Shown: positions 10,981 through 47,420, counted from the stretch's first letter. The stretch: 64,000 nt of DNA from a virus (IMGVR_UViG_3300017963_005353:19526-83525), one strand, 5' to 3'. Program-made: numbers and translations. The notes: generated by a model not told the origin, from the sequence alone.

Positions 10981-11366
10981 GGGTCGCCGCATCCGAGCAA
11001 GTTTTCGAGACGGCAAACCTAATATGGCTCGACGTGCACGGGGGCCTGATGTTCATGGTCCACGAGTATGGCACGTGGATTGGCTGCCCGGACAGATGGG
11101 CGGGACAGGCGTATGACCCGATCCAGGTGGGAGAGGGCCGATCGGCTGTGGTGCGCGGCTTTGGCTACCTTTTCCACCTGGCACGGGATGGGCGGTCGAT
11201 CGTCTCGCTGGGGCAAACTGGGCAGCCGATCTCAAAAGAGCAGGGATACAAGGCAGGCGTTGAAGAGCACGACGATGGTTGGACCATGACAGACAGCTAT
11301 GGGCGGGTGCTGGAGCTTAGGGTCAAACAGGGCGTTGCCCTGTGGAGCGCCTCTCACTGGCCTTAG
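10977..11366 (+). CDS. hypothetical protein
   Basis: ATGA overlap with the previous gene; MRVAASEQVFETANLIW... Confidence 0.5.
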   Translation: MRVAASEQVFETANLIWLDVHGGLMFMVHEYGTWIGCPDRWAGQAYDPIQVGEGRSAVVRGFGYLFHLARDGRSIVSLGQTGQPISKEQGYKAGVEEHDDGWTMTDSYGRVLELRVKQGVALWSASHWP

Positions 11367-11419
11367 AACGGAACCGCCCTGCGGCCCTGACAACAAACGA
11401 CACTAAAGGAGGTGCAACT

Positions 11420-12679: not shown

Positions 12680-13659
12680 AAACCAAAGTTCTCGTCACCG
12701 GTGCAGGTGGATTTATTGGGTCCCACCTGGTCCGAAGGCTCAAGCGTGCAGGGTTTTGGGTGCGCGGGGTAGACCTGAAAAAGCCGCAGTGGTCGGTCTC
12801 GCTGGCCGACGATTTTTGGGTTGCCGACCTGCGCGACCCGGGCGTCGCCATGCGGGCGTTCAGTGGTATGCAGGATGCCTACTGCCTGGCGGCGGACATG
12901 GGGGGCATGGGGTTCATCAGCACGAACCATTGTACCGTTCTTCGGCACAATGCCCTGATCAACGTCAACTCCGCTGCGGCTGCTGCCGGGACCGGCCTGG
13001 CCCGGATGTTCTACTCCAGTTCCGCTTGTGTGTACCCTGAGTGCCTGCAAATGGAGACGGGGATCGTCGGCCTTAGGGAGTGTGATGCCTGGAAAGGGCG
13101 ACCGGATACCGCCTATGGCGTGGAGAAGCTGTTTGGCGAGGAGGTCTTTCGCCGGTTGGCCGGCGAGCATGGCGTAGACGTTCGGATCGCCCGGTTCCAC
13201 AACATCTATGGCCCACAGGGTAGCTGGAACGATGGGCGGGAAAAACTGCCTGCCGCTGCCTGTCGCAAGGTGGCCCTGGCGAAACTGAGCGGGAATCACA
13301 CTGTAGAGGTCTGGGGCGACGGGCAGGCCACCAGGAGCTTTTGCTACATCGACGACTGCCTGGACATGGTGCTCGGGCTCATGGATTCCGACCACGACCA
13401 ACCGATCAACGTAGGCTCTGACCGGGAGGTGAGCGTAGACGACATGTACCATATCGCCGCGCTTGCTGCCGGTATCGAGGTGGAGCTCAGGCATGTGGAA
13501 GGACCACAGGGGGTCCGGGGACGTAACGCTGACCTGGCCCTGGCCCGAAAGATCCTAAAATGGAATGGGGGCACTCCCCTCGAGGATGGCATGGCCCAGA
13601 CTTACCGGTGGATCGAGGCACAGGTCAGGGCATGGAAAGGGGGAGGAGAGGGGTGTTAG
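12676..13659 (+). CDS. NAD-dependent nucleotide-sugar epimerase (GDP-mannose 3',5'-epimerase-like)
   Basis: TGAGGFIG, LAADMGGMGFI, SSSACVYP, YGVEK, RFHNIYGP, GREKLPAAACRK, GPQGVRGRN. Confidence 0.9.
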   Translation: MKTKVLVTGAGGFIGSHLVRRLKRAGFWVRGVDLKKPQWSVSLADDFWVADLRDPGVAMRAFSGMQDAYCLAADMGGMGFISTNHCTVLRHNALINVNSAAAAAGTGLARMFYSSSACVYPECLQMETGIVGLRECDAWKGRPDTAYGVEKLFGEEVFRRLAGEHGVDVRIARFHNIYGPQGSWNDGREKLPAAACRKVALAKLSGNHTVEVWGDGQATRSFCYIDDCLDMVLGLMDSDHDQPINVGSDREVSVDDMYHIAALAAGIEVELRHVEGPQGVRGRNADLALARKILKWNGGTPLEDGMAQTYRWIEAQVRAWKGGGEGC

Positions 13660-16553: not shown

Positions 16554-17361
16554 CCCTAGTCCCTCCTTGCTTTTCTGTGATGTTTAGGTTTGCGCTCATG
16601 GTCCACAGGCACGAATCGGTTGTCCCCTCCCCATGCCTGGGGCGCTCGGTTTGCCAAAGGTTGTTGTTGTAGTACCACAGCGCGTCCGGGGTCTGTGGGC
16701 TGTCTGCTTGGTGAACGGCCAGCACCGCGTCTGTGGCGTCCACGGTCTCAAACGCCTTGCGGCCGGCGGTCAACAGCAGGTAATTGTCCCATGCGGCCTT
16801 GCCGACGATGTAGGGGGCCAGGTCGGGCACCGTTCCCCTCCTGAACAAAAACCAGTCGAGCCCCGCCGGGCCGTGCAATGCCCCTGTGGACCTGGCATAC
16901 TGCTCTAGCCTCTCTTGCCAACGTGCCCCGAAATTGAGTGTCTGCCCAGTCAAGGTGGGCACATCCCATCGCTGCCCGACAACCATGAAGGGCGCGATCG
17001 TGAACCTGGCGTGCACCGCTTCTACCATCTCCATAAAGCCTCTGACCAGGATGATGTCGGCGTTGATATAGCATGCCAGGGAAGTAGTTGCCATGGCCTG
17101 GGCGTCTCTGAAAAGGGCGTGAAGGTAGGGAGGACCGTTTCGGTGCCGGGCCACGCCTGGGCGATGCAAGACCTCAAGCTCGCCGGTCATGCGTCGTGAG
17201 CCATAATCGTCGCCAAACACAACGATGGTCGGGCGCGGGTGAAGGAGGGTCCAACTTTTTATGGCGTTCCACTGTGCCGCCGCGTCATCGCCTCGCCAGG
17301 GCTTGCACGTGGTAAAGAGTGTGACGTTAGATTTCAATTTCAACGATGTCGGCATTGGCAA
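16528..17361 (-). CDS. glycosyltransferase-like protein (GT-A fold)
   Basis: FTTCKP, QWNAIKSW, YINADII, VGQRWD, WDN motifs. Confidence 0.7.
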   Translation of the reverse strand: MPMPTSLKLKSNVTLFTTCKPWRGDDAAAQWNAIKSWTLLHPRPTIVVFGDDYGSRRMTGELEVLHRPGVARHRNGPPYLHALFRDAQAMATTSLACYINADIILVRGFMEMVEAVHARFTIAPFMVVGQRWDVPTLTGQTLNFGARWQERLEQYARSTGALHGPAGLDWFLFRRGTVPDLAPYIVGKAAWDNYLLLTAGRKAFETVDATDAVLAVHQADSPQTPDALWYYNNNLWQTERPRHGEGTTDSCLWTMSANLNITEKQGGTRDAHTKGRR

Positions 17362-18244
17362 AGCCCCAATTTTCGTCGTTCGGCGTCCGGCTTTTCCCGG
17401 TCCGGAGCATCAGCTTTTTCCAGGGCTCAAATTCGGTCAACAGGTTGATGACCGGATAGGGGTATTCGGCCTTAACAGCGTCGAGCCCCACGAGTGCCTT
17501 GTCGTGGCACAGGTGGTACATGGGATGAGGGATGCAGTGCTCCCCATATCCCTCGGCACGGGCCATGAAGAGCAAAAGGCTATCAATGTGGGGGCTCCAG
17601 CGTCCTAATTCCGGGTAGCCCTTGAGGGCTGCCCAGGCGTCCCGGTGCAACATGGTAAAATCCCCACAGGCATCGGTGAAAACATCGTCCTTTCCGGGAG
17701 GTGCGTTGTGCTCCTCCGTTACATGCTCTCGCAAAGCCTCCAGCCATACGTCCACCATATAAGGATTGAGCAATTCGGGTGGATCGGAGACCCGTCGCAG
17801 GTTTGTGTCAAAGCGGGGGGCTCGATAGTACAGCCTCTCGTCCAGGTGCCCCTTGGCGTCAGCGGTTGCCAGCCATGCCACCAATTCGTGAGAGTAGAGC
17901 AGGTCGGCGTTGGTGCACAGCACCCACTTGCCTCTTGCCCGCCTAATCCCGCAGTTCTTGGCCTGCATCTGAAAGAACGGTATGATGTGGGAGTTCTCAA
18001 CCTGATCGTGGACCTCTTTGGGCACCAACAAGATCCGGATTTTGGCCTGCTTGCCCTTCGGCCAGCGAATGGCGTCTTTGAGCAACGGGCGGTCAGGGGG
18101 CGGGTTCCATTCCACGACCACAAGCTCCATGTCGAGCCCGTGCTTTTGTGCCTGCCACGTTATACCGGAGATGAATGCCTGGTTGCGATGCAGGCTGTCC
18201 CCATCATAGGCGTCATTGCGGGTCGCTGTCACGATGCTGATCAT
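17327..18244 (-). CDS. glycosyltransferase family 2-like protein
   Basis: ISIVTATRND, VVVEWNP, KNCGIRRARG, TNADLL, CGDF, W..LKGYPE. Confidence 0.8.
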   Translation of the reverse strand: MISIVTATRNDAYDGDSLHRNQAFISGITWQAQKHGLDMELVVVEWNPPPDRPLLKDAIRWPKGKQAKIRILLVPKEVHDQVENSHIIPFFQMQAKNCGIRRARGKWVLCTNADLLYSHELVAWLATADAKGHLDERLYYRAPRFDTNLRRVSDPPELLNPYMVDVWLEALREHVTEEHNAPPGKDDVFTDACGDFTMLHRDAWAALKGYPELGRWSPHIDSLLLFMARAEGYGEHCIPHPMYHLCHDKALVGLDAVKAEYPYPVINLLTEFEPWKKLMLRTGKSRTPNDENWGFANADIVEIEI

Positions 18245-18410
18245 TCGTTAGCTCCTGTGGGAATGGCGAGCGGATAATGGTTCCTTCGGTCGGGTCGTAA
18301 CGCACGACCTCCAGCCCCGTCTTACCGGTGGCCACGTGTATGGCGAAAATAGGTTCGTCGTCGGTCAGCACCAGATTAAGACCATCTCGAATTTGCTTCC
18401 AGGTCATCAT
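18213..18410 (-). CDS. small hypothetical protein
   Basis: Fills the gap between the MTase and the GT, overlapping both. Confidence 0.45.
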   Translation of the reverse strand: MMTWKQIRDGLNLVLTDDEPIFAIHVATGKTGLEVVRYDPTEGTIIRSPFPQELTNDQHRDSDPQ

Positions 18411-19318
18411 CACCCTATCCTCAAAGGCATCGGCTTCATAAGCCCCACGCGCTTGAGGCTTGGGTCTGCCACGGCGTCGATGAGCAAATGCCAGCCAAAA
18501 TGCCGTTCCAGCCAGCGAAAGACCGGGGGTGGGATCCGCTGCCAGTACCACTCTTTGACGTATTCCCCTCTGATGTAGGCGGGGATTTGATACGGGAAAA
18601 TGTGGTCAACGCGCATCCTTGTGACCCTGAGCCCGTGGTCCTCCAGGTAGAGACGGGCCTGTCGCTGGGTGTAGGTTCGCGTGATGGGACAGCCGGTCTG
18701 GGCCTCCGAATGTCGGGCCACGATCCGGTCGAGCGTTGCCAAGGGCAGGACCAGCCGCAACAGGTTCCATCCCCTGAGCAAGATCCAAAGCACCTTCCAT
18801 GAGACCTTGTGGTACAGCATCAGTTTCATGGTACTGTCAGGCCCCATGTACTCACGCAGGTTATAAAGTGCCGCCTGGGGATAGGGCGTGTGGTGGAGCA
18901 CCCCGAACGAGTATACCAGATCAAACGGTTCTTCTGGGGGGAAATAACGGGTGAGCTCCTCCAGAGGGAGCGTCATAAAGCGGATACTGCCCATCGTGTG
19001 TGTGACAACCGCCCGCTTTCTTGCGATCTCGATGGATTTCGGGGACAGATCCACGGCGACTACCTGGGCGCCCGCCTCAGCAAACGAGAGTGCCATAGTG
19101 CCAATGCCACAACCGGCGTCGAGCACCCTCTTGCCCTGCCACCTATCGAACTCGCTAAAGTCAACAATGTGGGGCTCGACCCGATATTTCCGGGCGGTCA
19201 CTGCCCGGCTGTACGCCAAGGGGTCGGTGTCAACGTCAATGTCGCCCCCGTGCCGCACGTTGCAGGGCCTTGCATCCCAATAGTCTCGCACGTCAACGAT
19301 GGTCGGGTGTCGTCTCAT
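18410..19318 (-). CDS. class I SAM-dependent methyltransferase
   Basis: VLDAGCGIG, VDLS, FDLVYSFGVLHH. Confidence 0.9.
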   Translation of the reverse strand: MRRHPTIVDVRDYWDARPCNVRHGGDIDVDTDPLAYSRAVTARKYRVEPHIVDFSEFDRWQGKRVLDAGCGIGTMALSFAEAGAQVVAVDLSPKSIEIARKRAVVTHTMGSIRFMTLPLEELTRYFPPEEPFDLVYSFGVLHHTPYPQAALYNLREYMGPDSTMKLMLYHKVSWKVLWILLRGWNLLRLVLPLATLDRIVARHSEAQTGCPITRTYTQRQARLYLEDHGLRVTRMRVDHIFPYQIPAYIRGEYVKEWYWQRIPPPVFRWLERHFGWHLLIDAVADPSLKRVGLMKPMPLRIG

Positions 19319-20193
19319 CTGTCTAGCCCTCCTGCCAGCACTTTGATAACCCGGTTTCTAAACTCCCTGTCAATGCCCCCGGGGTCATTTGCGGGGTTGA
19401 ACGGGTCGAACCACGGGTGCACCAGGAGCAAGTCAAGCATAAATTCATCCTCCGGTTGCTCTCCCCTGGCTTGCTCCACAAGCTGTCCAAAGGGCGTTGT
19501 GACTGACTGCCCGTCAGCACACAGCCCGCGCAAGAGCTTGTCGGGTGTGTACACCGCCCCCCTGTAGATCACCAGGTCGCCCCGTTCCTCTTTGCGGGGA
19601 GGCACCTGCCCGCCCGGAAAGAGAAAGGCCCGCTGCCTGGGATCCTCACCTTTTTTGATGACAAAGGGTCGTTCAAAGGGCTCGACGTGCATGGCGATGC
19701 TGCTGTAGCGTTTTTCAATGATGCGCCACAGGAGCTCGTCAAAGTTCAATGGGTCGCCTGTCTCGATGTCAATGTAGTAATAGCCCAAGTAAACGTCCAG
19801 CAAACGAAACCGGTTTGGGGCTTCGGGTATGGGAACGAATATGACCGTTGTGGCATGGGTGAGGCTGGTCTGGTGGTGGCCGTAGACGTATTCACAGGCC
19901 GGCAGGCCAATGCCCCGCAAGCAGGCGGCGAATATCCGGGCTGCCCCTCCACACCACGTACCCGCCTGCTCCCCAATGACCCGTTGAAACATGGTGGCGG
20001 CCGGCAGGTCGGGCGGCATGTTCGTGTGAGTGCCGGGGTAGGTCATGCGCCGGCCGAGCCAATGCCACAGGCAAAGGGCTGTTTCCCAGGTATCGAAGGG
20101 ATCGGTCATGCACAATTCTTGCAGCCCAGGGACAACAGCCTTGAGATAGTGCCCCAAGGTGTGTTCGTCTGTGATTTGCTCCAGGCTGATCAC
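19315..20193 (-). CDS. transglutaminase-like (Cys-His-Asp) protein
   Basis: GTWCGGAA...THAT...LLDVY spacing typical of the transglutaminase/NAT fold. Confidence 0.55.
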   Translation of the reverse strand: MISLEQITDEHTLGHYLKAVVPGLQELCMTDPFDTWETALCLWHWLGRRMTYPGTHTNMPPDLPAATMFQRVIGEQAGTWCGGAARIFAACLRGIGLPACEYVYGHHQTSLTHATTVIFVPIPEAPNRFRLLDVYLGYYYIDIETGDPLNFDELLWRIIEKRYSSIAMHVEPFERPFVIKKGEDPRQRAFLFPGGQVPPRKEERGDLVIYRGAVYTPDKLLRGLCADGQSVTTPFGQLVEQARGEQPEDEFMLDLLLVHPWFDPFNPANDPGGIDREFRNRVIKVLAGGLDR

Positions 20194-21194
20194 TGGTTTC
20201 TCCTGTGCAAGCTCTGGGCGCGTTCAATGGCCCGTTCCCACTCTGCCATGACAGGCTCCCGGCCAAACCGTTCCCGGGCCAGGGCTTTTGTCCTGTAGCT
20301 CATCCTGACGGCCCGATCGTAATCGTCGATCAGCCCTTGCGCTCTCGCCGTCAACTCTTGCAGGTTGCGGCAAACATAGCCCGTCACGCCGTCTCGAATG
20401 TGCGCCCTGTAGTCGTGTTGCTTCATGCCAACCACCAGGCAAGGAAGGCCGACCGCCAGGGCCTCGGTGAACGATAGCGACAGGTGCCGGCTCGATGCGT
20501 CACAGTCCAGGTTGACGTAGCAACGAAATGCCGCCATTTCCCCGGCGAGCTCCAGGGACGAGCGGTAGCGGTCCGCCGCGTCGAGGTGGAATCCCGGCAC
20601 GCTCTCGGTCAGTGCCAGCCAGTCGCGCAACCGTGGCTGGCTCTCCGGCCCGCCCCGCCATTTGTACGCACCGGCCAGCACGAAAAGAGCCCGGTTGTCC
20701 TGCCCCGTCCATTCCTGCTCGAAATACCAATCCCCAGGATACCAGGGCACAAAATAGGCATCGCGCACGCCGGCGGCGGTCCACTGGTCGGCAGCGACAA
20801 TGGAATCGGTTGCCACGACTGACCGGGCGAACATCTCCCTGTCCTGGGGCTCCAGGGGGATTGTGTGGGGCGTGTACCATGAAACCTTGATAATGCGGGG
20901 CACATCAAGCTCCCAGGACATTTCCCTCCAGGGGGGTTCCCATCCCCGCGCTTCCCAGGTGTCGATGACCACATCGTATTGCTGCCAATTTGCCCCATCC
21001 AGGGGTATCCAGGTGGTCTCGAAGCCAAGCTCTGGCCCCTCTTTCAGCAGCCGGGCTTTGTTGCTCTCCAGCTTGCTATGTGCCCCTCCATCCCCATGGG
21101 GAGCGGGAATCACGATCACGTCAAGCTCCCCAAACAGGGCGGCGGTTTTCTCGATGACCGAGACGTGAGCAGGGTACATCATGGCAACTTTCAT
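20190..21194 (-). CDS. glycosyltransferase (GT-B, GT4-like)
   Basis: SLSFTEALAVGLP, IRDGVTGY, ARERF..W C-terminal signature. Confidence 0.85.
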   Translation of the reverse strand: MKVAMMYPAHVSVIEKTAALFGELDVIVIPAPHGDGGAHSKLESNKARLLKEGPELGFETTWIPLDGANWQQYDVVIDTWEARGWEPPWREMSWELDVPRIIKVSWYTPHTIPLEPQDREMFARSVVATDSIVAADQWTAAGVRDAYFVPWYPGDWYFEQEWTGQDNRALFVLAGAYKWRGGPESQPRLRDWLALTESVPGFHLDAADRYRSSLELAGEMAAFRCYVNLDCDASSRHLSLSFTEALAVGLPCLVVGMKQHDYRAHIRDGVTGYVCRNLQELTARAQGLIDDYDRAVRMSYRTKALARERFGREPVMAEWERAIERAQSLHRRNQ

Positions 21195-21203: not shown

Positions 21204-21467
21204 CTAACGCACTGGCGACCCGGTTTGTGGGTTGTCGTTGCTCTCTGTTACCCAAAGCACAGACCACCACGCCCAAACGATCCATGCCAGCCCGATGCTG
21301 ACAAAAAGGGCAACGCCGGCCGCTCCCTCTTTCCAGTTTTCCAGGGCGTTCATACCCAGGGCAACCAGGACAAAAAAGAGGACTGTCGCCGAGCTTGCAA
21401 TGGTGACTTTTACGGGCAGCACCCGTTTGTTCCAAAATGCTTTTATTTTATCCATCGTACCATCCAT
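21204..21467 (-). CDS. small two-TM membrane protein
   Basis: Two hydrophobic segments. Confidence 0.55.
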   Translation of the reverse strand: MDGTMDKIKAFWNKRVLPVKVTIASSATVLFFVLVALGMNALENWKEGAAGVALFVSIGLAWIVWAWWSVLWVTESNDNPQTGSPVR

Positions 21468-22248
21468 ATCCCAGGCGCAGCATGATGTCCTTGAAGTGGG
21501 TCAAAAAGATGCGCCTGTGCCATTCGCTCCAACCATCCCACCTCTTTGCAGGGAGGGGATCGTACAGCCAGCCGTGTTCATCCCACAAGCCATGTGGGGG
21601 CAGGTTCAAGGTCTCTTTTTCAACGCTGACGGGGTTTGGGAGCATGGTCTCGCGCACGATCCGAACGTGCTCCAGGTTCCAGGATACTTGTGTAAGGTGT
21701 TCCATGAGCCTCTGGAAATATCGCCCGTCAGTGCCGATGGACTGGTCAAGCGTCTCAATCTTGACCAGGGGCCAATCCTGGGGACGAACGTCCATCAGCC
21801 AGCGGTGCAACCGGGCAAGTTCAACCGTGTAACCTTCAAAGTGGTCCTCTTCGGTTTTCATGGGTCGGCCCAGGTGTTTTTCAACCGTTGCGACGTGTTG
21901 TGTCAGGTCGGGCGTGTTGGGGCCAGGCTGAACCAGGCTGTTCCAATACTGCACGGTCTTTTTCCCCACCACCTCGATGGGATTACGGACGAACCGGGCC
22001 ACGCGCCCATGCTCGGCACAGTATTTGACCACGCCCCCCGATTTGATAAACCCCAGGCTCTTGAACGCGCCTTGCTTGCGCTCGCGCTCGATGTAGTCCA
22101 CAAGCGATTCACCCGGTTTTAGTTCGGGCGAATACTTGTCGTTTGTCGGAGCTTCTGCCCAGGCCCACACGTCAGGGTGTGCCCGGCAGATGGACATGAA
22201 CCAAAAACCCCCACAGTGGCCCAGGTTGACTTGCGCCCAGACTTTCAT
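21448..22248 (-). CDS. sulfotransferase-fold protein (degenerate)
   Basis: GHCGGFWF..ICRAHPDV...E resembles the 5'-PSB/HP motif; FVRNPIEV resembles the 3'-PB motif; ends ...LGY. Confidence 0.5.
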   Translation of the reverse strand: MKVWAQVNLGHCGGFWFMSICRAHPDVWAWAEAPTNDKYSPELKPGESLVDYIERERKQGAFKSLGFIKSGGVVKYCAEHGRVARFVRNPIEVVGKKTVQYWNSLVQPGPNTPDLTQHVATVEKHLGRPMKTEEDHFEGYTVELARLHRWLMDVRPQDWPLVKIETLDQSIGTDGRYFQRLMEHLTQVSWNLEHVRIVRETMLPNPVSVEKETLNLPPHGLWDEHGWLYDPLPAKRWDGWSEWHRRIFLTHFKDIMLRLGYGWYDG

Positions 22249-22430
22249 CGGCAGCTCCCCAGGATGGCGACAAGGCTTTGCAGCATGCTCGAATCTGACA
22301 GCATAATAAGGGTAAGAAAGGCAAGAAGAAAATCGCACAGCATGGTGATGGCGACCAGGGCACCAATTGGAAGATCGTCGCTGCTCAGTTTGGTGATAGA
22401 CAAAAATAAACCTGCACAGATGGTCAACAC
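22245..22430 (-). CDS. small membrane protein
   Basis: 61 aa hydrophobic, coupled to the carbamoyltransferase; RBS GGAGAG. Confidence 0.45.
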   Translation of the reverse strand: MLTICAGLFLSITKLSSDDLPIGALVAITMLCDFLLAFLTLIMLSDSSMLQSLVAILGSCR

Positions 22431-24121
22431 GGCTCTCCCTCCTTCTCGAGCATGAACCAGCGCCCAAAGGCCAGGGTATCAATGCCCGACTGCTCAAATG
22501 TCTGCATGGCGTCGTAAGGGCTGCTGACGATGGGCTCCCCTCTCAGGTTAAACGACGTGTTCATAAGTAGGGGCACGTGGGTCAGGCGGTGAAACTCAGT
22601 GAGGATTTCAAACAAAAAGGGATTCTCGGTTTCGCTGACCGTTTGAATACGGCTCATCCCGTTGACGTGTACGACGGCCGGCACATGGTCGGGGTTGTAT
22701 GCTTGATGGGTGAGCATCATGTGGGCAGCGGATGGGCTGTTGAATGTCTCGAACCAGTATTTGGCATGTGTGTCCATCACAACCGGTGCAAACGGGCGGA
22801 AAGCCTCTCGAAACTTGACCTTGGCGTTCATGCGGTCTTTCATGCGGGCGTCTCGGGGGTCGGCCAGGATGGTGCGGTTGCCCAACGCCCGGTTGCCCCA
22901 TTCGTCTCTGCCCTGGTAGAGAGCCACGATCTTACCCTGGGCGAGTTGTCGTGCAATTTCTTGGGCATTTGATTCCTGTTGCGGGAACCAAGAACAATCT
23001 GCCAGGGTTTGTTCAATTATCCGGTCAGGATAGTCGATCCCCAGGTAGGGCGTGAAGGGATACCGACGCACGTTTGTTGGTGCACAATCGGCCAGATCGC
23101 CTATGATCGCCGCTCCCATGGCACAACCGGCGTCCCCTGCGGCCGGCTGTATCCACAGGGTCAGGTCGGGATTGCAGCGCAGTATCATGGCGTTCAACAC
23201 GCAATTGAGCGTCACGCCACCGGCCATGCACAGGTTTCGGTGGTTGCCCTGGCCCAGGAACAGTTGCACCATCCTGAGCACCGTCGTTTCCAGCGCATAT
23301 TGGACCGCTGCCGCCAGGTCCATGTGTTCCTGCTCGATGGGACCGCCCGGTTTTCGTGGGGGCACGCCCAACAGCTTTTCCAGGGCGGGCGTGTGGTGAC
23401 AATGGGGATTACACCAGTCGAAATACTTCTGGTCAAGCCCAAACGACCCATCGGCGTTGAGCAAGAGGATATTTTCCAGCAAGCGGTCAGCAAGCGGAAA
23501 CGCATCGCCCATGGCCGCCAGGCCCATGACCTTGAACTCCCCGTTGTTGGACCGGAAGCCCAGGTAGTTCGTCATGACCGAGTAGAGCAACCCTAGCGAG
23601 TGGGGAAAACTGATGGACTGGATCCGGTGCAAGTTGTTCCCTTCACCATTCCATACCGTCAACGTGTCCCACTCCCCAACGCCATCGATCACGAGCACCA
23701 ACGCCCGCTCAAAGGGAGACGTGAAAAACGTGGCAGCAGCGTGGCTCCTGTGGTGCTGCGCGTTGTAAATCGGTCCATTGTAACCGAGCAACCGCATGTG
23801 TGTCTCAATGCCCCGCTTGTGGTGATAGTGATAGGGTATCACATTGCGCCAATAATTCCAGGTGCCCGGCCAGCCATCGCGGGCCTGGGCGACAACACGC
23901 TCAAACTTAAAGTCGGGATCTTCGTGGAAGAAAACCTGGTCCACGTCGTCCCATTTCCAGCCACAATGCAGGAGCGCAGCTTGCAAGGCCAGTTGGGGGA
24001 ACCTGGCGTCGTGCTTGACACGGCTCAATCGCTCCTCCTGTATGGCAAACCGTATCTCGCCATTCTCTATCGCCACGACCGCCGAGTCGTGGTAAAAGCA
24101 CGACACGCCAATGGTTCTCAT
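22424..24121 (-). CDS. carbamoyltransferase (NodU/CmcH/TobZ family)
   Basis: HDSA, QEERLSRVKH, HHRSHAA, IDGVGE, GEFKVMGLA, AAGDAG, RALGNR, KFREAFRPFAP, NTSFN. Confidence 0.95.
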   Translation of the reverse strand: MRTIGVSCFYHDSAVVAIENGEIRFAIQEERLSRVKHDARFPQLALQAALLHCGWKWDDVDQVFFHEDPDFKFERVVAQARDGWPGTWNYWRNVIPYHYHHKRGIETHMRLLGYNGPIYNAQHHRSHAAATFFTSPFERALVLVIDGVGEWDTLTVWNGEGNNLHRIQSISFPHSLGLLYSVMTNYLGFRSNNGEFKVMGLAAMGDAFPLADRLLENILLLNADGSFGLDQKYFDWCNPHCHHTPALEKLLGVPPRKPGGPIEQEHMDLAAAVQYALETTVLRMVQLFLGQGNHRNLCMAGGVTLNCVLNAMILRCNPDLTLWIQPAAGDAGCAMGAAIIGDLADCAPTNVRRYPFTPYLGIDYPDRIIEQTLADCSWFPQQESNAQEIARQLAQGKIVALYQGRDEWGNRALGNRTILADPRDARMKDRMNAKVKFREAFRPFAPVVMDTHAKYWFETFNSPSAAHMMLTHQAYNPDHVPAVVHVNGMSRIQTVSETENPFLFEILTEFHRLTHVPLLMNTSFNLRGEPIVSSPYDAMQTFEQSGIDTLAFGRWFMLEKEGEPC

Positions 24122-24303: not shown

Positions 24304-25137
24304 CTAACAGTCCAGTTCATGTTTCAACGACCTCCACAAAATTTCAGCCATCCACGGATAGGCATCAGGCTCCGGGTGCCCCATGTCCTGGAAATAGGGC
24401 ACACCCTGGGCGAGTGTGTTGACCGCCATTCCCGCCCACATGTTGCACAGGGGCACATCTAACGCCTCTGCTGCCCGGCGGCAAACTTCGTTGCGCTTCA
24501 ATATCTTGTCCAGGTGTTTGGCGGCTGTAGCGTGAAAATCATCGTTGCCCCAGAACCGGCGCAAACAGCCCTCCAGGTGGGCGTTGCCGGGCCGTTCCCG
24601 GGAGCCACCGGCTGAGGGGAGAATATAAGAGGTCCAGTCCTCCTTGATCGTAAGCTCATTGAGCAGGCTAGGCATGGTCACAAACATGGGGCCGGGCAGG
24701 TCGGCAACCCGTTTCCACAAGCCGAGGTCTCGATCCCAACCTTGCCAACCGTGCCAGCCGGGCAGGGTGACGTTGTGGTCTATGGCGATCTCGGCGTTTC
24801 TCCGCTCCATCAGATCCACAAGCTCGTGAAACCGTATGCCCTCCACGCCCCCGTTGAAAAACTGGATGGACGGACAAAACTTCTCGAGCATGTCTACCCA
24901 GGTGCGCCGACCCTGTCCAAATACCACCGAGTCGCCCCACACCACAGCCAGGGGGCGGCTATAGTCTCGATCCTGGAGCGAGCGGAAACCCAGGTCGTTC
25001 ATGCGAAAAAGAGTGACAGCATCCTTGTAGCAGACGCGCACGTTCCGGGCGGTCTCCATTGCCACAGGGTCCCAATAGTGGCTTTTGGTGAATCGCCCGT
25101 CCGTTTCGCCTTTCCACATGCAGACTTTATCAGCCAT
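24304..25137 (-). CDS. SGNH/GDSL hydrolase or acyltransferase
   Basis: WGDSVVFG, NGGVEG, DMGHP. Confidence 0.8.
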   Translation of the reverse strand: MADKVCMWKGETDGRFTKSHYWDPVAMETARNVRVCYKDAVTLFRMNDLGFRSLQDRDYSRPLAVVWGDSVVFGQGRRTWVDMLEKFCPSIQFFNGGVEGIRFHELVDLMERRNAEIAIDHNVTLPGWHGWQGWDRDLGLWKRVADLPGPMFVTMPSLLNELTIKEDWTSYILPSAGGSRERPGNAHLEGCLRRFWGNDDFHATAAKHLDKILKRNEVCRRAAEALDVPLCNMWAGMAVNTLAQGVPYFQDMGHPEPDAYPWMAEILWRSLKHELDC

Positions 25138-25870
25138 GCTTGTGCCCTTCCTTGAGCCACCATTCGGCTGCGCTTGCATCGAGCAGGTTGTGAATATCCC
25201 GGCCGGCAAGCCAGGTGCGAACGATAGGCTTGCACTTTTCGCCCATCCACCACCAGGGGCTCACCGTGTCGTCCTTATGCCCCGCGCACCTGGCACGAAA
25301 GGCCCACAACCCTTGGTCGAAATAGTAGGCCAGGGGATAACTCTGACGGTTTGTAGATTGTTCCGGCGATGCTCCCGCAAGGTGCTCCCGCCCAGGGTAA
25401 ACAGTCAAAAGCCCGTTCTCACCTATGGCGAGCGACCGCAAGGGGTGATCGTCCTGTGCCTGCCACACACTCATCACGCTGTCCAATGTGGGATCATCCT
25501 CCAGCATCTCCAGGGCGCGATCCACGAGCGGGGCGTCAATCATCACCCCGTTGCCGATCATGATGACCACGTTTTCCAGGGCGTTGTGCTGTTCCCAAAC
25601 CTTTCTCACGGCAAAGGCAATGGCGTCTCCGTGGTTTGCATCCGGGGCGGTGAGCACTTCTGGCTCCCAGATGGTTTGTGCGCCATATTCACCGGCCAGG
25701 GCCGCGATGATATTGGAATCGGTGAGGCAAAACACACCTTCCACTCGATCAGCCGTTGCGGCAGCGGCTAGAGCATAGATCACGCAGGGAAGGCCGGCGA
25801 TGGGCATGATGTTCTTCCGGGGGATGCTCTGGCTCTGGCCTTTTGCAGTGATGATCGCCGCGTTTTTCAT
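25130..25870 (-). CDS. cytidylyltransferase (NeuA/KdsB-like CMP-sugar synthetase)
   Basis: IITAKGQSQSIPRKNI, LTDS, RDIH. Confidence 0.85.
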   Translation of the reverse strand: MKNAAIITAKGQSQSIPRKNIMPIAGLPCVIYALAAAATADRVEGVFCLTDSNIIAALAGEYGAQTIWEPEVLTAPDANHGDAIAFAVRKVWEQHNALENVVIMIGNGVMIDAPLVDRALEMLEDDPTLDSVMSVWQAQDDHPLRSLAIGENGLLTVYPGREHLAGASPEQSTNRQSYPLAYYFDQGLWAFRARCAGHKDDTVSPWWWMGEKCKPIVRTWLAGRDIHNLLDASAAEWWLKEGHKHG

Positions 25871-26847
25871 GCTGCCCCCTTTTGCAAACTGAAAGCCAGT
25901 TGCATGGCTCGTTTGGCATCTACAATGGACGCCATAGCAACGGGTTTTCCAGATTCAACCGCTTGACGAAACAGGTTCACTTCCCTGTGGAACGAATTGT
26001 TTGTCTCAAAAGTTTTTGTTTCAATGTCGGCGCTGGCGTCTCTCGGAATGGCAACGTAAGTGGCAGGGCTGTACCGCCCGGAGGGGGAGCAAAACCCGTT
26101 CAACTGAACGTTGCCGTTTGACAGGCCAATCTCGATACCATAGGACGGTTGGCTTGAGGCAGAAAAGTGGACAGAGGCCGATATGCCGGTTTTTGATCTC
26201 AGTAATGCGAATACGTTGTCGTCTACGGGGCAAGGGAAATGGTGGGTATCTACCAGGGAGGTCAAGCCCTGCAAGGTCTCGAACTCCTCACCGGTGAACC
26301 AGTAGAGGAGGTCCAGCACATGTATGCCCAGGTCGAGCAAAACACCGCCCCCTGACAGGAGCGGGATCTGTCGCCATAGGCCGGTGTGCCCGCTCGAGGT
26401 GTATTGCGCCCTGATCCATAGAGGTGTTCCATACCGGTGCTCCTGGATCGCCCGTTTCGCCAAAAGGACATGCTCATGCCAGCGGTGGTTAAAGCCGAAC
26501 ATGAGCACCAGGCCTGGATGAGACCCCAGGGTATCATCCATCAGTCTCAAGTCTGACAAGTTGCGACCTGGGGGCTTTTCGCAAAATACATGCTTGCCCT
26601 GGTCCAAGGCCCAGGCCACAACCGAGGCTTGCACGTTGTTGAACGCACAGGCAAACACGGCGTCAATGTCTCGGCGGGCGCACAGATCACGGTAGTCTGT
26701 GTGAAACTGTGAAGGAGCAATCATATGAAATCTCCCCAACTGCCTGGGGTCAATGTCGCAGACGGCGCCAATCTCAATGCCTACCTGCTGGCAGCATTGG
26801 GCGCGGATTTGTCCCATTTTGCCCAGGCCCACAATACCGACCCTCAC
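25867..26847 (-). CDS. Gfo/Idh/MocA oxidoreductase
   Basis: GLGKMG, KHVFCEKP, GFNHR, GGGVLLDLGIH. Confidence 0.92.
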   Translation of the reverse strand: MRVGIVGLGKMGQIRAQCCQQVGIEIGAVCDIDPRQLGRFHMIAPSQFHTDYRDLCARRDIDAVFACAFNNVQASVVAWALDQGKHVFCEKPPGRNLSDLRLMDDTLGSHPGLVLMFGFNHRWHEHVLLAKRAIQEHRYGTPLWIRAQYTSSGHTGLWRQIPLLSGGGVLLDLGIHVLDLLYWFTGEEFETLQGLTSLVDTHHFPCPVDDNVFALLRSKTGISASVHFSASSQPSYGIEIGLSNGNVQLNGFCSPSGRYSPATYVAIPRDASADIETKTFETNNSFHREVNLFRQAVESGKPVAMASIVDAKRAMQLAFSLQKGAA

Positions 26848-26865
26848 GGAAACCTCCTTGCCATA

Positions 26866-26894
26866 ATTATACCTGTTTGGCCGCTTTGCGTCAA
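26866..26894 (-). promoter_or_regulatory. sigma70-type promoter
   Basis: TTGACG-17-TATAAT upstream of AAGGAGG and GTG 26847. Confidence 0.7.
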
Positions 26895-27979
26895 GCCCCC
26901 AGGAATTCAGCGATCTCAGTTGTGCTCAGTTCGGTTTCAAACATCTCGCCCGGCCCGTGAGTGAGGATAGCGTTGACCACGCCCGGCTTGTTGCCCCGTT
27001 TTTTGTCCTGACCGAGAGCTTGAATCAAAGACTGGCCGGTCGGGAAGTCCACTCTAGAGCAAAACCCATGATAGACATTCCTGGCAATCTGTGTCATTTC
27101 ATGGCAGGTATCACGGCTCAGGTAGCCCTTTTCCCAGGAGATCTCACAGGCGATCTCAATGCCCCCGGCGACCGCGATGCCGTGGGGGATCTGTGGGTCA
27201 ACCGCCTCGATGGCATGGCCGAATGTATGCCCCCAATTGAGCAGTCGGCGCACGCCTGTGTCTCGCTCGTCTTGCATGATGTATTCGCGCTTGATCTGGA
27301 GCGTTGCCCTGGCAGCCTTGACAAGCTCATCGTGTGCATACTCCAGATCAGGGTCGAGCATGTTGCCCAAGGTGTCTTTGACCCATTTGTACCACTGTCC
27401 ACCCTGCACCATGAAAAAGTGGAGCATCTCGCCTATCCCTGATAGTTGCTCCAGGTGGGGGAGCGTCAGGAGAAATGAGCGGTCGATCAACACCACTTCA
27501 GGCGGCCAGATGGTGCCAATGATGTTTTTGTAGCCGCCCAGGTTGATGCTCGTTTTGCCCCCTATACAGCTATCGGCCTGGGCGAGCAAGGTCGTGGGGA
27601 AATAGACCCACTTGATGCCCCGCATATACACGCTGGCCGCAAACCCGCCCAGGTCCATAAGCGAGCCCCCACCGACGACAAAGAGCCTGTTTTGGCGGGA
27701 GACGCCCTTTTCCAGGAACTCTGTTAGCAGGGAAACAACGTGGGTCAGGGTTTTTATCTGTCTACCCAGGCCCTCGAATGGTGGGCAGATAAAGGCTCTC
27801 TCAGCCTGTATGAGATCGTCAATCTGCTCTGAGTATCCATGGTAGATTGCGGGGTCGATCATCACCGGGTCCCCAGGGGCGATCAGGCTTTCCAGTGCAT
27901 CGAGCCAATTGCCGGTTTCTTGTATGGTGTAGTCTTGCACCTGGCTTGAGATTGCCAGCTTGAACTCATTGTCGGACAT
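26891..27979 (-). CDS. sugar-phosphate cyclase (3-dehydroquinate synthase / AroB-related)
   Basis: GGGSLMDLGGF, PTTLLAQADSCIGGK, KNIIG, GEMLH, LNWGHTFGHAIE, HGIAV. Confidence 0.88.
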   Translation of the reverse strand: MSDNEFKLAISSQVQDYTIQETGNWLDALESLIAPGDPVMIDPAIYHGYSEQIDDLIQAERAFICPPFEGLGRQIKTLTHVVSLLTEFLEKGVSRQNRLFVVGGGSLMDLGGFAASVYMRGIKWVYFPTTLLAQADSCIGGKTSINLGGYKNIIGTIWPPEVVLIDRSFLLTLPHLEQLSGIGEMLHFFMVQGGQWYKWVKDTLGNMLDPDLEYAHDELVKAARATLQIKREYIMQDERDTGVRRLLNWGHTFGHAIEAVDPQIPHGIAVAGGIEIACEISWEKGYLSRDTCHEMTQIARNVYHGFCSRVDFPTGQSLIQALGQDKKRGNKPGVVNAILTHGPGEMFETELSTTEIAEFLGA

Positions 27980-28703
27980 TGTGAAACCCTCCATCTATAG
28001 TGATATTCTGTCCTGTGATGTACGTGTTCTCGTCGGAGCACAGCCAAACAACCAACCTGGCAATCTCCACTGGTTGAGCAAACCGACCAAGTGGGATCTG
28101 CAAGGCAAGTTCTCTTTGTTTCTGGGTCGTCAGGGTGCGGTCGGTGAGCTCTGTCTGAGTGAATCCAGGGCTGACCATGTTCACCAGCACCCCATGGGGA
28201 GCCATATCAGCGGCCATGGCTCGGATCATGCCCGCCAGCCCCGCCTTGGTGGCAGCGTACACACTCCGCCCCGTCTTACCGGTCTCTGCCCAGATGGAGC
28301 CAATGTTGACAATATGCCCACCATGCCCTTGGCGTTGCATGACCCGACACGCAGCCCTGGCGATGCTGAATGGGGCAATCAGATTGACGCGCATAAGCAT
28401 GTTGATCGTGTCGGTTTCGATTTTCCAGATGGGGGCATTGACGTTGGTGCCAGCGTTTTGGACCAGCACGTCTAACCGGTCGAGAGTATGTAAAAAGCCC
28501 TCACACATTTGCAGAATGTGTTGGGCGTTGTTGAAATCACATCTCACATACCTGTCGAGCCATGCTGGACATTTGGGAAACCTGATCTTTCCGGTGCCAA
28601 TAACCCGCGCTCCCCTCCCTTGGAGTTGGCTGGCGATGGCTTTACCTATACCCCTGGTCGCCCCGGTGACGATTGCCGTTTTACCGGTAAAATCCAGGCT
28701 CAT
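27966..28703 (-). CDS. short-chain dehydrogenase/reductase (FabG-like)
   Basis: TGATRGIG, NAG, YAATK, PG..T, IDGG. Confidence 0.92.
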   Translation of the reverse strand: MSLDFTGKTAIVTGATRGIGKAIASQLQGRGARVIGTGKIRFPKCPAWLDRYVRCDFNNAQHILQMCEGFLHTLDRLDVLVQNAGTNVNAPIWKIETDTINMLMRVNLIAPFSIARAACRVMQRQGHGGHIVNIGSIWAETGKTGRSVYAATKAGLAGMIRAMAADMAPHGVLVNMVSPGFTQTELTDRTLTTQKQRELALQIPLGRFAQPVEIARLVVWLCSDENTYITGQNITIDGGFHNVRQ

Positions 28704-29182
28704 GGTGCCCTCGCTGATTCCAGGGCGATCTCGTTGGCCTCGGGATTGGGGAACATCATAGACAACAGACTTGCCGCATCCTCGAAAAAGGAATCGTCCT
28801 CGGCCACCTCACCGGCCATCTTTTGCACAGCCCGGCCTAGGGCAACCGCCCGGCCCAGGGCATAGCAGAACTGGCGGGGTTCGGCCTCGGCCCGATCGTG
28901 GTACGGGGCAAAGGCCAGGGAATGACGCGCCCGCTCGAACACGGCAACGCCACAGAATTTGTCGCCCTGTGGGGTCGTCAGCAGGCAATAGGTTGCCCCG
29001 CCCATAGGGGAAACGTGGGCCGGTCTGGATTCGCGATCCTCCTTGCCGTTGCGGTAGTACCGCCTCAAGAGCCAGGGGCCTTCGGCTGAAACATCACTGA
29101 CCTGCCGGTAGTGGAAAAACCGCACGTCAATGCCCCGCTGTTGCAGAGCCTCCACCTCGGTGCCGACTTTCGATACTTTCAT
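28700..29182 (-). CDS. hypothetical phage protein
   Basis: ATG 29182 after AAGGA; GGATYC...GVA...F..ALGRAVALGRA. Confidence 0.6.
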   Translation of the reverse strand: MKVSKVGTEVEALQQRGIDVRFFHYRQVSDVSAEGPWLLRRYYRNGKEDRESRPAHVSPMGGATYCLLTTPQGDKFCGVAVFERARHSLAFAPYHDRAEAEPRQFCYALGRAVALGRAVQKMAGEVAEDDSFFEDAASLLSMMFPNPEANEIALESARAP

Positions 29183-29448
29183 TATTCTGTCCTTTCTTCT
29201 TGTAGTTCGTCTCTGACAAACGGGTCGGGATGGGTGCTCATGGACTGTGGGGGATGTGATTGACCAGCGGTGAACAACCACAGCTTTCCCCACAACAGGA
29301 ACATGATCCTATCTTTCCACGAGCCTTTCCAAAGGGCAACCCGGAGTCTGCCGGTGTCGTGAACGGGTAGGGGTTGCTCTGGCGATGGCGACATGTGTTC
29401 CGGCACCATCATGGTTCGCGTGGTTCCTGAAAAATTGACCGGCTTCAT
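29182..29448 (-). CDS. hypothetical phage protein
   Basis: 88 aa, coupled on both sides. Confidence 0.55.
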   Translation of the reverse strand: MKPVNFSGTTRTMMVPEHMSPSPEQPLPVHDTGRLRVALWKGSWKDRIMFLLWGKLWLFTAGQSHPPQSMSTHPDPFVRDELQEERTE

Positions 29449-29461: not shown

Positions 29462-29905
29462 TCAAGGCATCAACAGGGGCGATACAAGTGAAATTGTGGT
29501 CGCTGTCGGCGTCCGGGTTGGAGGTGCTGGTGTGCTGGTCGGTGTGTATGTTGGGAGATGGGGATCGGGTTGGGTTGGATAGGGTGTGTGGGTAGGAATA
29601 AGTGTGAAGGTGGGAATGACGATGGGTGTGTGAGTATGGCGACAAGTGGGAGATGGGGCGGGCGTGTATGGGGCCTGGGTGGGCTGCGGGGTCGGTGTGC
29701 GGGGATCAAACGGGCATCGGTCGAACCAGTCCGCCTGATCCCTGTTCGTCGCCCCTGTTGATCTCTTTATCTCTTGTGTCAGTGTGGCGATAGACTTGTC
29801 ATCCTCTTGGAGCGGGATGGCCGGGCTCACCACGAAAAAGGCCAGCACAGCCAGGAATACAGCAATGCACACTTTGCCTCCTCTAGGGAGCTTGTTCTGG
29901 GTCAT
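29462..29905 (-). CDS. exported Thr/Pro-rich (mucin-like) protein
   Basis: Signal peptide or TM then TPTPQPT/PTYTPTSTPAPPTRTPT low-complexity tail; GAGGTG RBS. Confidence 0.65.
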   Translation of the reverse strand: MTQNKLPRGGKVCIAVFLAVLAFFVVSPAIPLQEDDKSIATLTQEIKRSTGATNRDQADWFDRCPFDPRTPTPQPTQAPYTPAPSPTCRHTHTPIVIPTFTLIPTHTPYPTQPDPHLPTYTPTSTPAPPTRTPTATTISLVSPLLMP

Positions 29906-29914: not shown

Positions 29915-30883
29915 TCACACTACAAACTGCCATGAGTTACCGAGCAAAGTGGGCTCTTTCCTGCCCTCCAGGATAGCCTTCACACCCTCGACGGCTTGCC
30001 TTTCCATCTCCTGGCGCGTCTCGGCCGTCCACGATCCCAGGTGCCGGGTCAGGACCACATTTGGAAAAGCGGCCAACTGTCCCTGGTAGGGCTCTTGCTC
30101 GAACACGTCCAGCGCGGCGCCGGCGATGAGCCGTTCCTCCAGGGCCTTGACCAGAGCCTCTTCGTCCACCAGCCCACCCCTGGCAGTGTTGACCAGGTAG
30201 GCAGTCTCTTTCATGCGTGTGAGCTCATCGCGCCCGATCCAGCCCAGGGTTTCGTCGGTCAAGGGGAGATGGAGCAGCAAAAAATCTGACCGCCCGATCA
30301 ACTCATCCTTTGACACATACGTTAGGGCTGTACGCGCAGCCAGGTTTGTGTCTGGGGCCTTGTCATGTCCAAGCAGTTCGACATACCAGGGAAACAACAG
30401 CCTGGCGACCCTGGAGCCCACCTGTCCTACGCCAGCAATCCCGATGGCCTTGCCCCGAAGTAGGCTGCCAGCGAACGAAACAGCCGGGGGCCACTCGCCA
30501 CACCTGACCGCCCGGTCCGACAGGGAAATGCGCCGGGCCACGTCAACCATGAGCCCAATGGTGAGCTCTGCCACAGCAATGGCCGGGGCAGTGGGTGTGT
30601 TGAGCACCTTGATCCCCATTTGCTCACAAAGTTTCAGGTTCACGTTGTCTGTGCCGGTGCCGACCCTGGCGATGACTTTCAGTTGATTGTTGCCACTGAG
30701 CAGGGCTTCGTTCACAGGCTCAGTGCCAGCAATGTACCCATCGCAGTCCATCAGGGCGGCCCGCAATTCGTCGGGCCGCAGCTTGTCAAAGGTGGGTTCG
30801 TCAGGATAGAGCACCTCGAAACCGTAGCTTGTCAAAAAGGCCCGGGCCTCAAGTCCGACCCGGGTGTTGATCAGGATTCGCAT
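29915..30883 (-). CDS. D-isomer-specific 2-hydroxyacid dehydrogenase (SerA-like)
   Basis: RVGTGTDNV, GVGQVG, HLPLT, NTARGGLVDE, LDVFEQEP, HLG. Confidence 0.92.
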   Translation of the reverse strand: MRILINTRVGLEARAFLTSYGFEVLYPDEPTFDKLRPDELRAALMDCDGYIAGTEPVNEALLSGNNQLKVIARVGTGTDNVNLKLCEQMGIKVLNTPTAPAIAVAELTIGLMVDVARRISLSDRAVRCGEWPPAVSFAGSLLRGKAIGIAGVGQVGSRVARLLFPWYVELLGHDKAPDTNLAARTALTYVSKDELIGRSDFLLLHLPLTDETLGWIGRDELTRMKETAYLVNTARGGLVDEEALVKALEERLIAGAALDVFEQEPYQGQLAAFPNVVLTRHLGSWTAETRQEMERQAVEGVKAILEGRKEPTLLGNSWQFVV

Positions 30884-32086: not shown

Positions 32087-32115
32087 ATTATACCCTAAAA
32101 CGGCTGTTTTGTCAA
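32087..32115 (-). promoter_or_regulatory. sigma70-type promoter
   Basis: TTGACA-17-TATAAT. Confidence 0.75.
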
Positions 32116-46353: not shown

Positions 46354-46390
46354 GTTGCTTGTTCCTTTCAAAACACGGTTGGTCTTTGTT

Positions 46391-46969: not shown

Positions 46970-46970
46970 T

Positions 46971-47240: not shown

Positions 47241-47263
47241 GTCATTTCCTTTCTAAAAACAAA

Positions 47264-47399: not shown

Positions 47400-47420
47400 A
47401 TCCCCGCTTGTTATGATACA

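Follow-up and report, generated by a model that had tools for sequence, protein, structure and literature searches.

3-Dehydroquinate synthase (DHQS; AroB) combines nicotinamide adenine dinucleotide (NAD)-dependent oxidation, phosphate elimination and re-reduction, and belongs to one superfamily with the natural-product sugar phosphate cyclases EEVS (synthase of 2-epi-5-epi-valiolone), DOIS (synthase of 2-deoxy-scyllo-inosose) and DDGS (synthase of desmethyl-4-deoxygadusol). The pathways of these cyclases use GlgC-type nucleoside diphosphate (NDP)-transferases and substrates without a carboxylate, and carbasugars of the guanosine diphosphate (GDP)-valienol type are a precedent for a nucleotide-activated carbocycle. 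Sugar acids activated with cytidine monophosphate (CMP), namely 3-deoxy-D-manno-octulosonic acid (Kdo) and the nonulosonic acids, are made by KdsA/KdsB, NeuB/NeuA and the pseudaminic (Pse) and legionaminic (Leg) acid pathways, which pair a phosphoenolpyruvate (PEP)-condensing synthase with a final CTP_transf_3 enzyme of the NeuA/PseF/KdsB family. A further group consists of the thiamine diphosphate (ThDP)/aldolase cassettes for long-branched sugars of the caryophyllose/erwiniose type, whose proposed gene logic requires a hydroxylated 2-keto acid that is acyclic and ends in a methyl group, and leads to terminal-deoxy branched sugars (PMC9306805). Here we analyze a phage gene cassette in relation to these systems. 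It lies in a window of 64,000 nucleotides, bases 19526-83525 of the complete 83.5-kb IMG/VR virus record IMGVR_UViG_3300017963_005353 with direct terminal repeats, and is centered on an AroB-like protein, P0001. Judged from its sequence, P0001 is a non-shikimate DHQS paralogue from a clade found only in glycan gene cassettes.

Four co-directional open reading frames (ORFs) on the minus strand fill positions 25130-28703 of the window. ORF and Pfam analysis bore out the sequence-only reading of this interval, which had placed an AroB-like protein among a short-chain dehydrogenase/reductase (SDR), a Gfo/Idh/MocA oxidoreductase and a NeuA/KdsB-like cytidylyltransferase. A 2-hydroxyacid dehydrogenase (2HADH) related to phosphoglycerate dehydrogenase (PGDH) belongs to the same module, though its gene lies outside the interval first flagged. 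The cassette reads as follows.

29915..30883, minus strand, PGDH-like D-2-hydroxyacid dehydrogenase (2HADH); 2-Hacid_dh_C, 8.6e-52
29462..29905, minus strand, ORF of 147 aa, rich in Pro/Thr and with a hydrophobic N-terminal stretch; interrupts the cassette
28700..29293, minus strand, phage ORFan, a 197-aa ORF (~160 aa from the first ATG) in the slot of the bacterial GmhA-like SIS isomerase
27966..28703, minus strand, classical SDR; adh_short_C2, 9.2e-53
26891..27994, minus strand, AroB-like protein P0001, 367 aa; DHQ_synthase, 8e-35, and DHQS_C, 1e-25
25867..26847, minus strand, Gfo/Idh/MocA oxidoreductase; Pfam GFO_IDH_MocA and C-terminal domains
25130..25870, minus strand, NeuA/PseF-type cytidylyltransferase P0122; CTP_transf_3 (PF02348), 32.5 bits against a cut-off of 22.6

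The motifs of P0001 are VGGGSLMD, FPTTLLAQADSCIGGK, GIGEMLH, NWGHTFGH and PHGIAV, with DSCIGGK where DHQS has DSS(V)GGK; gene callers elsewhere place its start at Met6. In alignments to solved DHQS structures, GEMLH lies opposite AEVVK/AEVIK and HGIAV opposite HGEAV. The translation thus displays the two motif changes and the retained NAD and Zn motifs to which the sequence-only reading had drawn attention. Compared with DHQS (PDB 5hvn, 3okf and 1dqs), P0001 shares the fold family, the NAD motif GGG..D, the Zn ligands E189, H256 and H271, and the phosphate/carboxylate residues K147, N157, K235, R249, N253, H260, K331 and R125; it differs in DSS to DSC, E-x-x-K to E-x-x-H and HGE to HGI, and in having no shikimate neighbors. 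The residues G108-G110, D114, R125, D141, K147, N157, E189, K235, R249, N253, H256, H260, H271 and K331/K332 are all present in P0001 and invariant both in the clade to which it belongs and in aroK-linked AroB. Their assignment to NAD, Zn, phosphate and carboxylate binding follows the structure and numbering of A. nidulans DHQS, as do the presumed roles of K197, K250 and R264. Because these binding residues are invariant, the AroB-like enzyme is very probably active. Its substrate is probably phosphorylated and probably also carboxylated, resembling 3-deoxy-D-arabino-heptulosonate 7-phosphate (DAHP), and by analogy P0001 likely uses the oxidation, phosphate elimination and reduction chemistry of DHQS.

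The best NCBIfam model for P0001 is TIGR04425 (292.8 bits, below its cut-off of 400), a hypothetical equivalog named ‘AroB-related putative sugar phosphate phospholyase (cyclizing)’. The protein also falls below the equivalog cut-off of the aroB model TIGR01357 (245.2 bits against 305). Against the PDB, DHQS entries scored 118-142 bits, compared with 88.8 bits for EEVS (ValA, 4p53), 85.2 bits for DOIS (BtrC, 2d2x) and 61.4 bits for DDGS (5tpr). Membership of the EEVS, DOIS or DDGS families was rejected on these scores, and the kinship to them suggested earlier was not upheld. The database search found just five close relatives (49-81% identity), below which comes a large population at 35-38% identity, part of it named TIGR04425 by NCBI.

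An IMG/VR locus search with P0001 as the sole query gave nothing, and loci were obtained by an alignment-based scan; the resulting sample, retrieved by alignment of AroB-like proteins, comprises 80 viral and 80 genomic loci, and some of its IMG/VR contigs may be prophage-flanking host DNA. We built a FastTree phylogeny of 164 sequences from stop-to-stop ORFs, with EEVS, DOIS and DDGS sequences left out. One clade with local support of 99 holds all 95 cassette-linked homologues, including those of 80/80 viral loci, and aroK-linked AroB lies outside it. None of the viral homologues is a canonical AroB; 40 belong to the ThDP/aldolase type and 36 to the CMP type of cassette described below. Within the cassette clade, P0001 sits on a long branch together with its five relatives. 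The two groups also differ at single positions: residue 143 is Cys in 95/95 cassette sequences and Ser or Ala in 27/27 aroK-linked AroB proteins, and residue 273 is non-acidic (I/L/V/Q) in the cassette clade and Glu, giving the canonical HGEAV, in 24/27 aroK-linked AroB proteins. Position 192, where P0001 has the His of GEMLH, is Lys in 27/27 aroK-linked AroB proteins. The separate, well-supported clade agrees with the earlier proposal of a non-shikimate DHQS paralogue.

Clustering the neighbors of the 160 homologues defined the cassette types. In 82 loci the gene directly upstream of the AroB-like one encodes a short SDR, in most cases with an overlap of 4-26 nt; the window shares this arrangement. 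In type B (44 loci) the ThDP enzyme is YerE-like, the aldolase HpcH-like and the DegT proteins RfbH-like; this type corresponds to the ThDP/aldolase cassettes for branched sugars. It has the SDR and AroB-like pair of the same clade and differs from the window in K192, the YerE-like and HpcH-like enzymes and the lack of a CMP-transferase. The published account of such cassettes gives no role to a DHQS-like gene (PMC9306805), and in papers on the Mycobacterium marinum lipooligosaccharide locus no annotation of a DHQS-like gene was found. Type C (about 36 loci) encodes a CTP_transf_3 protein, frequently with a fused cupin, alongside a GmhA-like SIS protein and a class-III aminotransferase; its transferases are GT29-like or Maf-like. 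Type D (nine loci, 7/9 bacterial) combines CTP_transf_3, GmhA-like SIS, Gfo/Idh/MocA and PGDH-like 2HADH proteins. Hidden Markov models (HMMs) of the neighbor clusters matched the window SDR (cluster 1, 4.8e-42), cytidylyltransferase (2.1e-20), 2HADH (cluster 16, 1.3e-81) and Gfo enzyme (cluster 18, 1.3e-70). Since the type-D neighbor HMMs match the window 2HADH and Gfo proteins, the window holds a type-D cassette.

Six bacterial loci (L082, which is from Joostella, L084-L087 and L090) contain the window gene set plus a SIS_2/GmhA-like protein, and the AroB-like genes of all six score above the TIGR04425 cut-off (421-482 bits). Cassette-bearing bacteria also keep a separate canonical AroB. Across sampled Pseudomonadota, TIGR04425 exceeded its cut-off in 7/401 species genomes (~2%), and in 0/14 control genomes. 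The phage carries four of the five TIGR04425 neighbor families, that is, the upstream SDR, Gfo/Idh/MocA, PGDH-like 2HADH and a CMP-transferase of another subtype. It shares with the bacterial cassette the clade, C143 with a non-acidic residue 273, and the SDR directly upstream, and is distinguished from it by two unrelated small ORFs between 2HADH and SDR. The phage cassette is a diverged copy of a widespread one and matches the bacterial TIGR04425 cassette except that it has no GmhA-like isomerase. The cytidylyltransferases of the two are barely similar: that of L084 is KdsB-type (257.8 bits against a cut-off of 255), and that of the phage is NeuA/PseF-like. P0122 matches PDB NeuA 9ftb at 2.4e-12; its IITAKGQSQSIPRKNI aligns to the NeuA motif IIPARGGSKRIPRKNI (the N-terminal nucleotide-binding IIxAxGxSxxIPRKN), and a downstream RQ motif aligns too. 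It stays under the specific equivalog cut-offs, at 60.2 bits against 205.7 for PseF (TIGR03584) and at most 38 bits against at least 193 for the KdsB models. A CTP_transf_3 gene is present in 43 of the non-ThDP loci, and GT29-like or Maf-like transferases occur within 6 kb of at least 30/43 CMP-type loci and 0/44 ThDP-type loci. Because non-orthologous KdsB-type and NeuA-type enzymes serve the cassette, the comparison argues that CMP activation of the module’s own product has been selected for. The recurrence of the gene set in bacteria and in many viral contigs likewise supports the functional, non-chance link to a CMP-transferase and reductases that had been suspected from this one stretch.

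The Lys-to-His change in GEMLH might be taken as diagnostic of new chemistry. His192 was found beside a CMP-transferase in 37/40 cases and beside a ThDP enzyme in none, and Lys192 in 44/44 ThDP-type loci, so that GEMLH is a real subfamily marker tracking CMP-type cassettes. Within type D, however, the same gene content goes with either residue (His in L082, L084 and L087; Lys in L085, L086 and L090). Since both occur with one Gfo/2HADH gene set, the change alone is unlikely to switch the chemistry; it was rejected as the determinant of a new reaction and loses its diagnostic weight.

The SDR has the catalytic N-S-Y-K tetrad (N107, S136, Y149 and K153), which does not vary across the family alignment. 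Among solved structures the 2HADH comes closest to phosphoglycerate dehydrogenase, an enzyme that oxidizes a phospho-2-hydroxyacid (1wwk, 1e-55); 2-ketogluconate reductase 9m0t matches at 1e-44, and the PGDH model TIGR01327 at 231.7 bits, under that model’s cut-off. The best PDB matches of the Gfo enzyme are inositol dehydrogenases, with glucose-fructose, aldose-aldose, L-arabinose and xylose 1-dehydrogenases also present. The GmhA relation of the bacterial SIS protein points to heptoses, as GmhA interconverts sedoheptulose 7-phosphate and heptose 7-phosphate. In the phage slot for this isomerase, the ORFan at 28700..29293 had no family matches, its Atlas neighbors were viral hypotheticals only, all scoring below 0.9, and an hhalign probability of 0.1 against the SIS cluster marks it as unrelated. 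The 147-aa ORF at 29462..29905 had no Pfam or NCBIfam match.

Based on these findings, we propose a tentative pathway, to which we give somewhat less than an even chance: a 2-keto sugar acid phosphate derived from a heptose phosphate would have its terminal phosphate eliminated by the AroB-like enzyme and would be reduced and CMP-activated without a NeuB/KdsA synthase. In the first step, the Gfo enzyme or the SDR would oxidize C1 of a heptose 7-phosphate supplied by the host, or of sedoheptulose 7-phosphate once this has been isomerized. The 2HADH would then oxidize the C2 hydroxyl of the phospho-aldonic acid to give hept-2-ulosonate 7-phosphate, the 3-hydroxy analogue of DAHP, which would suit the AroB-like enzyme because the carboxylate and phosphate sites are conserved. 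The latter would perform the first half of DHQS chemistry: C5 would be oxidized transiently by NAD+, phosphate would leave by β-elimination and re-reduction would follow, yielding a 7-deoxy-6-keto acid. The 6-ketone would be reduced, most simply by the coupled SDR, and ring closure would give a pyranose 7-deoxy-heptulosonic acid. Finally, the NeuA-type enzyme would make the CMP-sugar; products of the downstream genes would transfer it and decorate it with carbamoyl and methyl groups, and perhaps with acyl groups or sulfate. The Gfo enzyme might alternatively serve as a ketoreductase; which sugar the pathway starts from, and in which order the oxidoreductases act, are both inferred. Like Pse and Leg, such a product would carry a deoxy group at its end, and the phage resembles the CMP-Kdo and nonulosonic acid pathways in its final CTP_transf_3 enzyme and, through related cassettes, in the company of GT29-like and Maf-like transferases. 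It differs in that the keto acid would come from oxidation of a sugar phosphate, and the deoxy end from elimination of phosphate, in place of PEP condensation. No NeuB/KdsA-family PEP-dependent synthase was found in the phage genome, where neither PF03102 nor PF00793 had a match; control genomes did match.

Several observations favor an open-chain product of the AroB-like enzyme. The keto acid must be built before ring closure, because the 2HADH has no possible substrate after cyclization: by analogy, a PGDH-like enzyme would be unable to oxidize the tertiary carbinol of a DHQ-like ring and fits better upstream, making the 2-keto acid phosphate. GT29-like and Maf-like transferases, which to our knowledge need a true anomeric center, accompany the CMP-type loci. 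The strict SDR pairing is what a deoxygenation module (‘phosphate out, ketone reduced’) predicts, and the same SDR/AroB-like pair serves the ThDP/aldolase cassettes with their acyclic-product logic.

An unlikely alternative, close to what the sequence-only reading had put forward, is that the AroB-like enzyme completes the DHQS reaction to a carboxy-cyclitol (a hydroxylated dehydroquinate), which is reduced and receives CMP on its tertiary C1 hydroxyl; the resulting CMP-carbasugar would be a donor or an inhibitor mimic. The DHQS residues are invariant, including those around substrate C1/C2, the Gfo/Idh/MocA enzyme is most like inositol dehydrogenases, and the NCBI family name contains ‘cyclizing’. 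Moreover, a quinate-type C1 bearing hydroxyl and carboxyl groups is geometrically like C2 of Kdo or N-acetylneuraminic acid, and GDP-valienol exemplifies nucleotide-activated carbasugars. However, a tertiary carbon that is saturated and has no ring oxygen is chemically very poor as a glycosyl donor, which sits badly with the GT29-like and Maf-like transferases of related CMP-type cassettes; the 2HADH, having no substrate on the cyclized product, must act earlier; EEVS, DOIS and DDGS are far more distant than DHQS; and the ThDP/aldolase sister cassettes depend on a 2-keto acid donor that is acyclic (PMC9306805). The putative carbon-ring product is the less likely reading. Improbable as well is the corresponding view of its purpose, in which the phage would make a CMP-carba-ulosonic acid, an analogue of Kdo or sialic acid, and would either install it as a decoration resistant to hydrolases or use it as a dead-end mimic to block the CMP-sugar transferases of the host.

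The points that weigh against the open-chain pathway partly overlap with these. All DHQS active-site residues are conserved and the last DHQS steps can reportedly run spontaneously (work of Knowles and Bartlett), so that cyclization may occur; the inositol dehydrogenases that best match the Gfo enzyme would fit a cyclitol. P0001 itself is a long-branch member below the TIGR04425 cut-off. A SIS isomerase was not found anywhere in the phage genome, and a CMP-sugar transferase was not recognized in the window by cluster HMMs, Foldseek or hhalign/phmmer. Gfo and 2HADH are both missing from the CMP-type cassette most frequent in viruses, which instead encodes a cupin and a class-III aminotransferase, so the proposed acid-forming steps are not universal. 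A literature search on the TIGR04425 family and on DHQS with cytidylyltransferase, nonulosonic acid or phage found nothing usable, and biochemical data for any clade member were not found in it. As isomers of the formula C7H12O7, the reduced carbocycle and the open 7-deoxy-heptulosonate cannot be told apart by mass alone.

It is also improbable that the SDR/AroB-like pair and the cytidylyltransferase work on different molecules, the pair making a terminal-deoxy aldehyde, keto acid or cyclitol for use as a side chain or substituent and the NeuA-like enzyme activating host Kdo, Pse or Leg. The pair does behave as a portable module, accompanied by a ThDP enzyme in place of a CMP-transferase in 44 loci, and the window transferase is weakly NeuA/PseF-like with no specific assignment. 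Yet CTP_transf_3 recurs in 43 of the non-ThDP loci, KdsB-type and NeuA-type enzymes both occur in the cassette, and the phage lacks a NeuB or KdsA for another ulosonic acid, though the host could supply one. Least probable by far is an ordinary DHQS acting as an auxiliary metabolic gene that boosts host aromatic amino-acid synthesis. Its catalytic residues are all intact and the aroB model scores 245 bits; this score is nevertheless below the cut-off of 305, P0001 lies outside the aroK-linked AroB clade, it bears the cassette-clade signature (DSC and HG-hydrophobic), its gene is embedded in a glycan operon with cassette partners, and cassette bacteria keep a separate canonical AroB. As the sequence-only reading had noted for the window, other shikimate genes are absent: shikimate kinase (SKI), type II dehydroquinase and DAHP synthase were all missing from the complete 83.5-kb phage genome. 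An ordinary AroB was therefore rejected on its sub-cut-off score, separate clade and glycan context.

If the proposed open-chain pathway is correct, it would constitute a route to CMP-activated, sialic-acid-like sugar acids without a NeuB/KdsA-type aldol synthase, and a DHQS paralogue with a reductase would form a portable module that converts a terminal CH2-O-phosphate to methyl. If instead the ring closes, the product would be the first CMP-carbasugar known. The SDR/AroB-like module is common to CMP-type and ThDP-type cassettes and present in at least 80 uncultivated viral contigs; phage-borne pathways for such unusual sugars seem common in metagenomes. Solving the cassette would give the hypothetical family TIGR04425 a function, explain an unassigned gene of branched-sugar clusters and show phages carrying whole pathways for unusual acidic sugars. 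No cultured phage carrying the cassette was found: megablast of the operon against isolated phages gave no match, and tblastn of P0001 against them returned nothing but canonical aroB, from records that look bacterial or contaminated.

Two variants among the related cassettes were observed. Some ThDP-type loci (L013, L015, L019, L024, L059 and L089) also encode a NeuB-family synthase (PF03102, 1.9e-40), so that both predicted routes to a keto sugar acid are present there. The CMP-type cassette most frequent in viruses (L012 6390-7511, L020 2881-4005 and similar loci) has its cytidylyltransferase fused to a C-terminal cupin and next to an L-lysine-6-transaminase-like class-III aminotransferase, a combination suggesting that the sugar has an amino variant.

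The genome is that of a tailed phage, with tape measure, large terminase, portal/head-morphogenesis and replication-initiator proteins among its gene products; it also encodes a DnaC-like loader and a Dam methylase. Its sugar-modifying enzymes form a minus-strand gene run from ~31.5 kb down to 17.3 kb of the window, and upstream of this run the plus strand encodes a UDP-glucose dehydrogenase and an epimerase. Beyond the cassette, the following genes belong to the glycan region.

24304..25209, minus strand, possible SGNH/GDSL-type esterase or acyltransferase (sugar tailoring); GDS motif seen in the sequence
22424..24121, minus strand, NodU/CmcH-type O-carbamoyltransferase (sugar tailoring); Carbam_trans_N, 4.5e-66, and Carbam_trans_C, 2.9e-59
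21448..22497, minus strand, 349-aa protein, a sulfotransferase-like lead; Atlas feature neighbors at 0.94 include Sulfotransfer_3 or Sulfotransfer_1 clusters
20190..21194, minus strand, GT4-type GT-B glycosyltransferase, 334-aa ORF; weak Glycos_transf_1 match
18410..19318, minus strand, S-adenosylmethionine-dependent methyltransferase (tailoring); Methyltransf_23/25/12/11, 1e-16 to 1e-17
17327..18244, minus strand, possible GT2 glycosyltransferase; Glycos_transf_2, 20.2 bits, under the cut-off
11342-12679, plus strand, UDP-glucose/GDP-mannose dehydrogenase; phrog_9148 UDP-glucose dehydrogenase, 1.7e-63
12676-13659, plus strand, NAD-dependent epimerase/dehydratase; Epimerase, 2e-36

Given the carbamoyltransferase, the methyltransferase, the possible SGNH protein, the possibly sulfotransferase-like protein and two to three glycosyltransferases, the predicted operon product is therefore a decorated glycan; a role of the sugar product in the virion coat is unsupported. 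The plus-strand pair at 11342..13659 forms another nucleotide-sugar arm within this glycan region. For the product of 24304..25209, Pfam gave a faint Lipase_GDSL match alone (E 0.16). The protein at 21448..22497 had no Pfam match and is a possible sugar sulfotransferase in this phage glycan operon. The AlphaFold model of the 20190..21194 protein has a pLDDT (predicted local distance difference test) of 61.5, and its top Foldseek matches are BshA, MshA, PimA and Gtf3 (E about 2e-6); the predicted fold is GT4-type GT-B and resembles users of UDP- or GDP-sugars, and the protein was rejected as a sialyl- or Kdo-transferase. The window ORFs gave no match to the SIS, aldolase, GT29-like, Maf-like or GT10/11-like clusters by hhalign and phmmer.

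Outside the glycan region, a 175-aa ParB_N-like protein overlaps a 365-aa PAPS_reduct and DUF3440 protein on the minus strand at 32112-33718. The GC content there is 0.49, against about 0.58-0.60 in the neighbors, and the region looks like a separately acquired DNA-modification or anti-defense module; it is followed by a GNAT acetyltransferase (34781-35179) and a piece of an SNF2-type helicase (35176-36192). A second low-GC island (0.47) spans 46001-48000, between the replication module and a 552-aa ORF without a PHROG match. The minus strand at 51891-53213 encodes a 440-aa protein with a Gp3-like ‘recombination directionality factor-like’ domain (3e-19). On the plus strand, a CAP/SCP-domain protein (38381-38899, 1.7e-16) comes directly after a 352-aa protein (37326-38384) that has a C-terminal winged-helix domain, and the weak matches of this domain include haloarchaeal HTH families.

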